Assembly: GCF_003334355.1 (NCBI RefSeq)
Contig: NZ_QOWP01000002.1
DNA from: Escherichia coli
GTDB lineage: Bacteria > Pseudomonadota > Gammaproteobacteria > Enterobacterales > Enterobacteriaceae
Reading direction: 5' to 3' (one strand)
Length of the DNA stretch: 64,000 bases
The notes beneath the pieces were generated by a model. The model had not been told where the DNA came from, searched no databases, and saw only the letters and a program-made list of their open reading frames with translations. Made by a program: the position numbers and the translations under genes. Positions 41,788 to 44,700 of this stretch are shown here, in pieces; position 1 is the stretch's first letter, and each line of letters starts with the position of its first letter.

Positions 41788-44700
41788 TTACCATTTCACC
41801 GTCATCGACAAAAACCCTGCCGTCTGGGCAAAATCATCACTCCCTTTCTGCCACGCCACGCTGCCGCGCAGGGACACTCGCTGACTGATATTGCCCGTGA
41901 CTCCCACTTTTATTTCACCCCGTTGCTTCACCGCATCGTCACTGATAGTGCTGCCATCCTCTTCAATTTCCGTCGAATGGGGATCGTGATAATAATTCAG
42001 ATCTAATGTTGGTATGACATGAACAGCGGTACGCCATTCGCTGTGTAAACCCAGCCGCGTCTGAATATCATCACCCTGCGATTGTGACACGCGCGCACGG
42101 TTAGCGGCGGTAAAATCATCCTGCTGCACGCCCTGATAAATCACCTGCGCCTGCGGTTCAATCACCACACCACGCCCCGGTAACCACTGATACCCCGCCT
42201 CCAGCGAGGCGATAATCCCCGACGAGTGGTAATGATCTGTGCCATCTTCTTGTTCGGAAACATCATTGCTAAACCACGCGTATTGCAGCCAGCTATCCAG
42301 CCAGGCCCCTTGCTTCTGATTACCGTGCTGAAACCAGCTTGATGTCAGCCCAACGGCATAACCGTGGTTCTGGTTATCGGCGCGAGTTCCGGTCATATTC
42401 GAGCGGCTGTCGCCCTGGTTATCGCTGTAGCCACCAACAATCCCAAGCATCCACTTGCCATCCGTGCCCCAGCGCCCGCTAAACAGATCGCCGCTAAGTT
42501 GCACCGTAGAAGTGTCTTCATGTTGAGCCAGTTGCCCCGCTGCTGTGTAATGATAATCTCCGCCGATAACACGTAAATTCAGCGTCTGACCATCGCCACC
42601 TGCGTGATCGCGTCGCTCCATCATAAACGCCTGATTTGCCGCCCGCAGGTTATTGAGATAACCGCCAACTTTGGCATTCAGCACCGGCTGGTAAACAGGC
42701 ACAGGGGCCGGGTCGGGGGTTGGGTCAGGATCCGGCGTGGGATCAGGATCGGGAGTCGGGTCTGGCTCAGGTGGCGATGGCGGCGTTACTTCTTGCGATC
42801 GCAGATACCAGTCGTTGTTATCTTCCACCAGCGTGTAGTCATACGCTCCCATATTGACGTAGCCGCTGCCTGCCAGACTGAACTGCGCATTGTTTTGAAA
42901 CTGCGTGGGATCAGCTGCGAAATCAACCACTTTAATGCCTGTCGATGTCGGCTCACCAATCCCTGTAATGGAGTTAACCACCACAGTTGTGTTGCCAGCA
43001 GTATTACCGTTCATCACCAATTGATCGCTTACCGAGTCATCGCCGTTTAATTCGCTATCGAGCAGTAGCGTACCGCCGCCGGTATAATCACCGTTTACCG
43101 TCAGCGTATCGCCAGCGACGCCATTTTGCAGGCTAACCGCACCGGACGTATTGGTCAGATTGCCATTAACCGTCACGTTGGAAAGATAAGTCAGGCTGTC
43201 AGTTTCAAGGTTGGTATTAAGCTCACCTGTCAACGTCACACCATCGGTGGCATTCACCAGCGTCCCATCGCCGTTAAATAGTGAGGCATTAAGGGCGACG
43301 GAAGTATCCTGCCCGGTCAGGCGCAAAACCGTACCATCGCTGATGTCGATAGTGCCGCTGGAAATAGCATCAATTGACTGAATATCCTGATCCGCGCCAG
43401 TAACGAACGTTGCCCCATCACCAACCCACAGTGACGAAGCATAAGGAAGGATATCAGCAACATCACCTTTCAGGGTGCCTTCTTCGACACGTACCGCCGA
43501 CTGCGTTGTACCGCTGGCGGTCAGCTCCAGTGTACCAGCCCCCGTTTTAGTCAATGTGCTACCCTCATCCTGATGCTGCCCGCTGCTGTCAGCCATCAGT
43601 GCGCCCCACTGCGTGTCTACCCCCGCATCAACTGCCACTTCACCGTCGGCGCGCATTTCAATATCACGTCCGTGGCCTGCCGCATCTGAACGCGTGTCAA
43701 CGTCGGAGGTAATCTCCATCACGCTTTCTTGTTGCTTATCGGTAAAGATAACCTGGCGGTTATAGTGGGTATCTCCAAGCTGCGAGTTGTCGCTCACCAT
43801 CAGCGTACCGGAGGCGATTTGTGTTGTGCCCAAATAACTATTATTGTTTGCCAGACTTACCTGCCCGTCGCTCGCATCGACCACCACGTAGACGCCATCT
43901 TTCCCGTCGCCGCCGATATGCAAATTGTCGCCACCTGCAAGATCTACCACATCCTGACTGCCGATAACCGTTCCGCTGCTGCCACTGACTTCAAGGCCAT
44001 CGTTGTATGATGTGCCGCTCTGCCAGGTGGAGAAATCAGAGAGATCGAGCACACCGCCGTTTAACACGATCGACTGCGGATCGTCCTGGAGAGCGGTAAG
44101 ATCTGCCGCGTCGCCTTCCAGCGAAAGCACCGCACCATCATCAACGACTATATCGCCGGTTAGCGCCATCGACTGCGCCCCTGCCAGCACGTAGCTGCCG
44201 TTTTGCGCAATGGTGAGCTGACCAGCACCTTCGATGATGCCAGCAAAACTGCCCTGATTAACAGTAACGTTGCCACCAGCATCGATATTTAAAGTGCCAT
44301 TCTGAAAGCCCGTCAATGCGTGCACAAAAGTTTGTTGGGTCGAGCCAACGTTTAGCTCAGCCTGATTCTGATACTGATCAATACTCCCTATCGTCAGACC
44401 GTAGCAGTCTTGCGGATCGTCCTGGCAATGCGTATCGCCGACATTCATCAGGGAGTTGCTGCGGCCCAGGGTAACTTCACCGTTTTCAATCTGCATCTCA
44501 CCAGTAAAGTCATTGTTATCTGCATTAAGTACCAGATCGCCGGAACCTGTTTTGGTGATTAACCCGGTACCAGCAATAGAGTCAACAGCTCCGTCATTCT
44601 CTGTATTGCCAATAACCAGCGTTTTTCCGTCGGCAATATCAAAGGTAACTTCACTTAAGCCGAGATACATAAAGCCACCCGCCGCAGAGGAAGGACCATC

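Follow-up and report, generated by a model that had tools for sequence, protein, structure and literature searches.

A proline-rich spacer of variable length between passenger and translocator in the Escherichia coli autotransporter YfaL

The Escherichia coli autotransporter YfaL carries, between its autochaperone domain and its pore helix, a short acidic tract in which proline alternates with other residues. We interpret this tract as a non-globular spacer that tethers the passenger to the pore helix, tolerates insertions and deletions, and changes in length by slow drift; for this explanation as a whole we estimate a probability of about 0.75. The gene lies in a stretch of 64,000 nucleotides of E. 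coli DNA (contig NZ_QOWP01000002.1 of RefSeq assembly GCF_003334355.1; hereafter the window), in which the following features were identified.

41788–45540, minus strand: yfaL/ehaC coding sequence, 1250 amino acids plus stop, intact in the window (open reading frame list and translation)
42829–43161, minus strand: autochaperone domain, residues 794–904 (Pfam AC_1, PF18883, E = 2.4e-18)
42694–42786, minus strand: acidic proline-rich (P-X)n spacer, residues 919–949, TPPSPPEPDPTPDPDPTPDPDPTPDPAPVPV (translation)
42712–42765, minus strand: three exact PDPTPD hexapeptide units, residues 926–943 (codon listing)
42631–42675, minus strand: predicted pore-plugging alpha-helix, residues 956–970 (AlphaFold2 helix, model residues 176–190)
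41794–42585, minus strand: twelve-stranded outer-membrane beta-barrel, residues ~986–1249 (PF03797, TIGR01414, AlphaFold2)

The reading frame is yfaL/ehaC. It scores 2804.9 bits against the YfaL/EhaC equivalog model NCBIfam NF007285 (cut-off 1459), with residues 1–1250 of 1250 covered, and the matching RefSeq genome both annotates the gene as yfaL and has the order nrdA-ypaB-yfaL-ubiG-gyrA. Flanking reading frames in the window are consistent with gyrA (875 aa) and ubiG. The call of YfaL made in an earlier, sequence-only reading of this DNA is thus upheld by profile score (2805 bits versus 1459), annotation and synteny. A single copy of yfaL is present in 5420 of 5426 E. coli genomes, and reference E. 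coli K-12 YfaL already has the tract, as a slightly different allele. Literature searches on YfaL together with proline-rich segments found no paper. Matches to yfaL in a plasmid collection were only mislabelled chromosomal pieces and are uninformative.

The predicted architecture of YfaL is that of a classical type Va autotransporter, with a 12-strand barrel, a pore helix and an autochaperone domain. The autotransporter beta-domain (PF03797) was detected at residues 989–1228 (E = 1.7e-34), TIGR01414 scores 386 bits, and the AlphaFold2 model has twelve barrel strands (model residues 206–469). Pore helix and barrel superpose on the AIDA-I transport unit (4MEE) with a target-normalised TM-score of 0.92 and an rmsd of 1.6 Å, and the fold also matches the EspP, Hbp, BrkA and NalP translocators. 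The AC_1 region aligns to the autochaperone regions of AIDA-I (4MEE) and IcsA (3ML3); predicted beta strands extend past AC_1 to about residue 919 (AlphaFold2 strands up to model residue 139). The translation begins with a hydrophobic N-terminus ending ...ANGVAA. Display constructs take residues 1–28 as signal, and YfaL 786–1250, tract included, functions as a surface-display anchor (PMC7138890).

The passenger repeats near the N-terminus belong to the GGA[IV]/FxxN polymorphic-membrane-protein type (TIGR01376; Pfam Chlam_PMP), together with PATR repeats. The POMP_repeat model TIGR01376 is above threshold (42.7 versus a cut-off of 15), and residues 76–245 contain six GGA[IV] and five FxxN motifs. 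AIDA-like passenger repeats, as proposed by the sequence-only reading, did not hold up: a Pfam scan of residues 51–1250 gave no match to any AIDA-type repeat family, and NCBIfam auto_AIDA-I stayed below its cut-off (92 versus 1200 bits), with the match confined to the barrel.

The tract follows AC_1 (residues 794–904) and precedes both the pore helix (956–970) and the beta-domain (989–1228), so that Pfam domains and the AlphaFold2 model agree with the earlier placement of a linker between passenger and translocator. The linker peptide reported there, PEPDPTPDPDPTPDPDPTPDPAPVPV, is correct and corresponds to residues 924–949 (window 42694–42771, minus strand); the coordinates given for it, 42699–42776, were off by 5 nt. 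Proline occupies every second position throughout T919–V949 (31 residues) and accounts for 16 of these residues (52%), versus 15 prolines in the remaining 1219 residues of YfaL, an enrichment far beyond chance. Basic residues are absent and bulky residues few. In the AlphaFold2 model the tract is DSSP coil with a pLDDT of 57–65, compared with 84–95 in the flanking domains, and this low pLDDT suggests disorder.

Neither Tandem Repeats Finder (minimum score 30) nor a second repeat search detected a tandem repeat in the tract of this allele. The three 18-nt units encoding PDPTPD diverge at third codon positions, and no exact direct repeat is longer than 8 nt (GATCCTGA, with an offset of 18 nt). 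Identity at the 18-nt offset is 0.60, and thus not above the value of 0.636 that random synonymous back-translations of this peptide would give. The repeat in this allele therefore exists only at the peptide level, and the short DNA tandem repeat named in the earlier reading is not borne out here. Observed values lie slightly below the null, giving no significant sign of synonymous codon choice acting against repetition (P about 0.12–0.23). Some other yfaL alleles, with a 26-residue tract, have an exact tandem duplication of 16–20 nt. A cluster of Dam GATC sites in the tract, considered as a regulatory feature, follows from Asp-Pro (GAT-CCN) codon pairs, and we assign it no regulatory function; GAT serves for three of the six Asp codons of the tract, not above the 74% found gene-wide.

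Tract length was surveyed in 98 complete E. coli genomes, drawn as two evenly spaced samples out of 5420. It is the same as in this allele in 64 genomes, 18 nt shorter in 22, 6 nt longer in six and 24 nt shorter in three, with single genomes 6, 12 and 168 nt shorter. The sample thus holds seven length classes, and protein databases add more; with these included, tracts of 20, 22, 24, 26, 28, 30, 32, 34 and 36 residues occur. These lengths are without exception even, which preserves the Pro-X register. Among the complete genomes, length changes only in frame and in multiples of 6 nt. The suspicion that linker length varies between strains was therefore well founded, and an identical repeat number in all alleles, which would have told against it, was not what we found.

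Indels are concentrated in the tract. Across the 1250 residues, nine full-length alleles (82–99.6% identity) differ by indels at just two sites: a single 2-aa event close to residue 545, and the tract itself, where several events have occurred and which is the sole multi-event indel site in yfaL. Comparison of this allele with that of K-12 over 321 nt (flanks plus tract) placed eight of the ten nucleotide differences inside the tract. Between alleles the non-Pro positions vary (D/E/T/A/V/I/N/S) and Pro is kept. One metagenome allele (P0009) is missing the entire tract. In Shigella sonnei, independent assemblies break at the identical nucleotide within the tract, a pattern suggestive of a possible IS insertion there.

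Tract length mostly follows the flank haplotype or allele lineage, and is unchanged in the sampled laboratory and evolved derivatives of K-12 and laboratory derivatives of BL21. Its dependence on lineage argues for slow in-frame indel drift over a contingency locus. Where indel endpoints could be traced, they coincide with direct repeats of 5–12 nt: allele L002 is without one GATCCN unit, allele L012 corresponds to the L003 type after loss of exactly 18 nt between repeats of 11 nt (GATCCTGATCC), and allele L011 has lost 168 nt between repeats of 12 nt (CTGATCCCACGC). Such a pattern favours infrequent deletion and duplication at short direct repeats as the probable source of length change, as opposed to a hypermutable repeat. 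Of the description of the tract as slippage-prone, the variation in length survives; the changes are in-frame 6-nt steps, mostly fixed within lineages, and the DNA has no tandem repeat here.

Pro-X coding (CCN-GAY, CCN-ACN) inevitably generates short direct repeats, and we propose that rare deletion or duplication between them would change tract length in 6-nt steps, with the altered alleles then persisting within lineages. The tract would tolerate such in-frame indels because it lacks a fold that could be broken and needs only to keep its Pro register, and length changes would be nearly neutral. As a spacer, it would tether the folded passenger (beta-helix plus autochaperone domain) to the helix that plugs the 12-stranded barrel. 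In an extended, polyproline-II-like conformation, at ~3.1 Å per residue, 20–36 residues would span roughly 6–11 nm and hold the passenger away from the membrane surface.

Most members of the family have a proline-rich spacer at this junction. Of 111 diverse autochaperone-type (AC_1) autotransporters with locatable anchor motifs that we compared, 97 carry at the same position a spacer that is 15 or more residues long and contains 20% Pro or more. These spacers have a median length of 37 residues (range 16–109) and contain 16% acidic and 4% basic residues, with repeat units unrelated between proteins. Some homologues (for example P0085, P0132 and P0163) carry nearly the same PDPTPDPEPT unit as YfaL; a few spacers differ from that of YfaL in being Gly/Asp/Asn-rich and not Pro-rich (P0114). 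Counterexamples to a long spacer are AIDA-I, a homologue with 10 residues (P0120), the 168-nt deletion of L011 and the tractless P0009. Such short-linker homologues and deletion alleles indicate that a long spacer is not essential for fold or secretion in the family.

The tract could also be kept as an aid to secretion. An unfoldable acidic segment might form the hairpin stretch in the barrel lumen at the start of translocation and be retained because it cannot fold prematurely, a role compatible with that of a spacer. In favour, the tract directly precedes the pore helix, nearly all autochaperone-type autotransporters have a spacer at precisely this point, and the tract has no basic and few bulky residues. 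However, AIDA-I and some homologues secrete with ~10 residues here, and neither unit sequence nor length is conserved. We consider this explanation unlikely.

It is likewise unlikely that linker length, which the sequence-only reading suggested could change surface exposure, has been selected to match the thickness of O-antigen or capsule, such that length alleles differ in exposure of the adhesin. Several length classes are common (~65% reference, 22% minus 18 nt, 6% plus 6 nt), independent indels have occurred in different lineages, and they are concentrated in the tract, but relaxed constraint alone predicts the same pattern. Moreover, the 20–36 residue range is small, at most about 5 nm, and the sampled O157:H7, O25b-ST131 and K-12 strains, of very different O types, all have the reference length. 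A literature search on autotransporters, polyproline and O-antigen found nothing relevant. The broader version of this idea, which we rate as distinctly improbable, is that tract length is non-neutral and co-varies with surface-polysaccharide type, that lineages adjust the reach of YfaL through O-antigen or capsule, and that the direct repeats of Pro-X coding provide a slow, heritable length adjuster common to most autochaperone-type autotransporters.

We also find it very doubtful that the exposed tract is an immunodominant epitope in which immune escape drives the changes in length and at X positions, a mechanism proposed for the proline-rich R1/R2 regions of pertactin. Pertactin alleles do differ, on a slow timescale, in how many proline-rich repeats they carry (PMC8931430), and in YfaL the non-Pro positions change while Pro is kept, the differences from K-12 cluster in the tract, and positive selection has been reported for the gene, with no mention of the tract (PMC9110714). 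On the other hand, no pertactin antibodies were found to engage R1 or R2 (PMC8931430), yfaL has been described as cryptic in laboratory conditions, and variation at X positions is equally explained by relaxed constraint.

A contingency locus, in which slippage at a simple-sequence repeat turns YfaL on and off or alters it fast within a clone, is extremely improbable and largely refuted, since the periodic coding sequence, the 16–20 nt duplication of the 26-residue alleles and a few database proteins frameshifted within the tract are outweighed by the failure to detect tandem repetition in the DNA of this allele, 98 of 98 complete genomes in frame, a single length per haplotype class, constancy in K-12 laboratory derivatives, and no sign of frame-shifting or frequent switching. 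The frameshifted variants, considered as phase variation, come from Logan/ENA assemblies, several have other frameshifts, and they are probably sequencing errors.

Read as a spacer drifting slowly in length, the tract is an ordinary one and matters little, as a segment of this kind has been described in TibA and most of the family share the feature. What is added here is the in-frame length polymorphism of yfaL (20–36 residues, with about one-third of genomes differing from the length of this allele), evidence for rare events at short direct repeats versus a hypermutable repeat, and a family-wide view in which the spacer is general. Practical use is mainly for those who employ YfaL 786–1250 for surface display and for yfaL allele typing.

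Among known systems, the YfaL tract fits the TibA-type spacer in its position, its Pro content and its predicted coil structure. TibA, a self-associating autotransporter of E. coli, has a proline-rich domain (residues 627–677) between the junction region and the membrane domain (PMC3835316), and as in YfaL this segment separates the junction/autochaperone region from the membrane-embedded C-terminal domain. The TibA segment is ~50 residues long versus 31 in YfaL and belongs to a different protein with a different repeat; the likeness is one of architecture. For the proline-rich linker of Agrobacterium Aat, which display constructs retain, it has been proposed that the segment remains unfolded and extends the passenger (bioRxiv 10.1101/2022.02.15.480547); its sequence is unrelated to that of YfaL, and its role is likewise a proposal. 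Pertactin of Bordetella resembles YfaL in having proline-rich autotransporter repeats whose copy number varies between natural alleles, slowly and at the level of populations, but R1 and R2 are loops between beta-helix rungs built from other units, whereas the YfaL tract links the autochaperone domain to the pore helix. For the domains flanking the tract, AIDA-I (4MEE) is the closest solved structure (sequence E = 2.8e-35; target-normalised TM-score 0.92). It has ~11 residues between the aligned blocks, compared with ~40 in YfaL, and the alignment skips the tract, making the proline-rich segment of YfaL an insertion relative to AIDA-I.

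The tract is a real and ordinary feature of an already known gene, and the sequence-only reading located it rightly. The open reading frame that carries it matches NCBIfam equivalog NF007285 over its full length (2805 bits versus a cut-off of 1459), and is yfaL/ehaC. RefSeq names the matching gene "AIDA-I family autotransporter adhesin YfaL/EhaC", which is present as a single copy in each of 5420 of 5426 complete E. coli genomes, and the local gene order is nrdA-ypaB-yfaL-ubiG-gyrA. The features, on the window scale or by YfaL residue, are as follows.

41788..45540, minus strand: yfaL/ehaC, 1250 codons (ORF list and translation)
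44806-45315, minus strand: N-terminal passenger repeats, residues 76-245, with six GGA[IV] and five FxxN motifs
Residues 794-904: AC_1 autochaperone domain (Pfam)
42694-42786, minus strand: whole tract, T919-V949, 31 residues with proline at alternate positions
42694-42771, minus strand: residues 924-949, PEPDPTPDPDPTPDPDPTPDPAPVPV (translation)
Residues 989-1228: Autotransporter beta-domain (Pfam)
42604-43050, plus strand: antisense ORF of 148 codons, spanning the tract opposite yfaL

The peptide PEPDPTPDPDPTPDPDPTPDPAPVPV had been read correctly, with coordinates 5 nt off. The tract holds 16 prolines, versus 15 across the other 1219 residues of YfaL, and includes three exact copies of PDPTPD (residues 926-943). 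Its placement between passenger and translocator was also borne out, and can be refined to the junction where the autochaperone domain meets the pore helix. In an AlphaFold2 model of residues 781-1250 (mean pLDDT 86.7), beta strands reach model residue 139, N-terminal of the tract; the tract is coil (model residues 140-168, pLDDT 57-65); and a helix (model 176-190, residues 956-970) precedes twelve barrel strands. Helix and barrel superpose on the AIDA-I transport unit (4MEE) with a target-normalised TM-score of 0.92 and rmsd of 1.6 Å, and the N-terminal part of the model matches the IcsA autochaperone structure 3ML3. Sequence alignment to 4MEE covers query residues 28-137 and 178-464, skipping the tract.

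We propose that this acidic Pro-X spacer links the folded passenger to the pore helix as a tether, probably in an extended conformation. Polyproline-II geometry gives about 3.1 Å per residue, at which a spacer 20-36 residues long would measure roughly 6-11 nm. The tract adjoins the pore helix and might also be the first segment threaded through the barrel, which we consider unlikely.

Less apt was the description of the passenger as carrying G/N/T-rich beta-helix repeats typical of AIDA-like adhesins. Residues 76-245 match TIGR01376 (polymorphic outer-membrane-protein repeat; 42.7 bits, cut-off 15) and, weakly, Pfam Chlam_PMP; three PATR repeats follow. No AIDA repeat family appeared among the Pfam and NCBIfam matches to YfaL, the Pfam query beginning at residue 51. 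As judged from these profile matches, the repeats are of the chlamydial polymorphic membrane protein type and not AIDA-type.

The antisense ORF is Gly-rich because GGN complements CCN; most probably it is incidental to yfaL coding and not a gene. The window yfaL is intact, whereas in E. coli BE2-5 (NZ_CP032986.1, locus positions 2401-6153), 100% identical across the 401-nt query described below, the gene carries a pseudogene annotation with an internal stop.

Tract length varies among strains, as had been predicted, and alleles do not share an identical repeat number. A 401-nt query centred on the tract was searched against the 5426 complete genomes, and rows were sampled at even rank steps, twice (40 and 60 rows), giving 98 distinct genomes with lengths taken from matched spans.

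Tract length relative to the window allele (genomes of the 98 sampled)
0: 64
-18 nt: 22
+6 nt: 6
-24 nt: 3
-6 nt: 1
-12 nt: 1
-168 nt: 1

Across twelve representative loci, all length differences fall inside the tract and the compared flanks (321 nt per allele) are collinear. Further tract lengths (20, 22 and 36 residues) come from the protein database, as does one metagenome allele with no tract at all. Measured between E917 and Y950, both excluded, tracts fall into classes of 20, 22, 24, 26, 28, 30, 32, 34 and 36 residues. These are even numbers throughout, so Pro and X never fall out of register. Nine aligned full-length alleles, 82-99.6% identical, have indels at two places only: a single 2-residue indel near residue 545 and several events in the tract. 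The former marks two deeply divergent yfaL allele families with ~82% protein identity (window and eight other loci). A literature search found no publication on YfaL tract length variation. In-frame indels and X-position substitutions would be tolerated because the tract lacks a fold, and we infer that length changes are near-neutral; adaptive tuning of adhesin exposure by tract length is a less likely account, and rather doubtful.

The window allele (E925, A945, V947, V949) is a minority form, and identity of at least 99% over the 401-nt query was found in only 171 of 5420 genomes. Over the tract and 321 nt of flanks, 8 of 10 nucleotide differences from the K-12 allele lie in the tract, most of them within the final seven codons. 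The passenger is far more variable (20-40% variable columns in each 50-residue block) than the autochaperone domain and barrel (10-18%). Immune-driven variation of the tract seems improbable.

The proposal that the peptide is encoded by a short DNA tandem repeat fails for the window allele; some other alleles behave differently. Neither Tandem Repeats Finder (minimum score 30) nor a second repeat search detected a tandem repeat in the window tract, and third codon positions vary among its three 18-nt units. The tract DNA was compared with 20,000 synonymous back-translations drawn at random for this peptide under the codon usage of the gene itself; its longest exact direct repeat (8 nt; null mean 10.4) and its 18-nt-offset identity (0.60; null 0.636) were neither above the null nor significantly below it. 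The periodicity therefore belongs to the peptide, with no sign of recent DNA duplication. In K-12-type alleles GATCCTGATCC (11 nt) recurs at an offset of 18 nt, and 26-residue alleles carry an exact tandem duplication of 16-20 nt. Within 22 bp (window 42729-42750, plus strand) are three Dam GATC sites, at 42729, 42741 and 42747, and five are present in the K-12 allele; the window average is ~1 per 200 bp. The sites arise because Asp-Pro codon pairs read GAT-CCN.

Traceable indel endpoints fall on short direct repeats, which CCN-GAY and CCN-ACN coding supplies. Removing one GATCCN unit from the K-12 allele gives L002, and L012 differs from the L003 type by the loss of exactly one 18-nt unit between 11-nt repeats. 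E. coli VTB97022v (NZ_CP178670.1) has a 168-nt in-frame deletion (~ window 42742-42909) between 12-nt direct repeats, CTGATCCCACGC, one copy in the autochaperone domain and the other in the tract. In the shortened gene (3585 nt, encoding 1194 aa), AADPT at residues 875-879 runs straight into the second half of the tract; the last autochaperone strands and half of the spacer are lost.

Tract length largely follows flank haplotype (clusters: window, L001 and L002; L005, L007 and L008; L003 and L010; L006 and L009), with occasional recent changes within clusters (L002 versus L001, L010 versus L003). Sampled genomes showed one length per identity/bit-score class, and the sampled laboratory or experimentally evolved K-12 and BL21 derivatives were all at reference length. 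The tract thus behaves as a low-constraint spacer with rare indels via short direct repeats, not as a contingency locus. Phase variation is effectively excluded, no frame-shifting tract length occurring among the 98 sampled complete genomes.

Four frameshifted tract variants among the database proteins stem from Logan or ENA assemblies, and several have further frameshifts; they were rejected and treated as sequencing errors. In Shigella sonnei, independent draft assemblies break inside the tract (L013 and L015 at a contig start, L017 at a contig end); downstream contigs begin at an identical nucleotide (CGGCCCCTACGCC...), and ~50 partial proteins stop at various points within VTPPSPPNPNPTPDPDPTPDP. 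These contig breaks suggest a candidate IS insertion. An ENA metagenome protein (P0043, 624 aa) has a YfaL-like passenger and tract, then an unrelated Asn/Lys-rich C-terminus after ...PDPEPTPDP, and is probably a chimeric assembly joined via the low-complexity tract.

Such spacers are general in the family, and their slow, in-frame length polymorphism is typical of it. Residues 781-1250, searched with phmmer against 1.84 billion cluster representatives, yielded 3524 matches; among the best 150, less than 50% identical to one another, 111 could be anchored by the conserved W-Y/F-L motif ending the autochaperone domain and the G-x-Y-x-x-N motif starting the helix. In 97 of these the junction carries a spacer 15 or more residues long that is at least 20% proline (median 37 residues, range 16-109; 16% acidic and 4% basic residues), built from many unrelated units, including PDPT, PEPT, VDP, PPDVT and EPEKPG. 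The pattern recurs in closer homologues from Citrobacter and Paraburkholderia. AIDA-I, in contrast, has only ~11 residues at the junction where YfaL carries the tract. A surface-display anchor in use, YfaL 786-1250, includes the tract (PMC7138890). Agrobacterium Aat has a proline-rich linker proposed to be unfolded and to extend the passenger (bioRxiv 10.1101/2022.02.15.480547), and the proline-rich repeats R1 and R2 of pertactin are polymorphic in copy number (PMC8931430).
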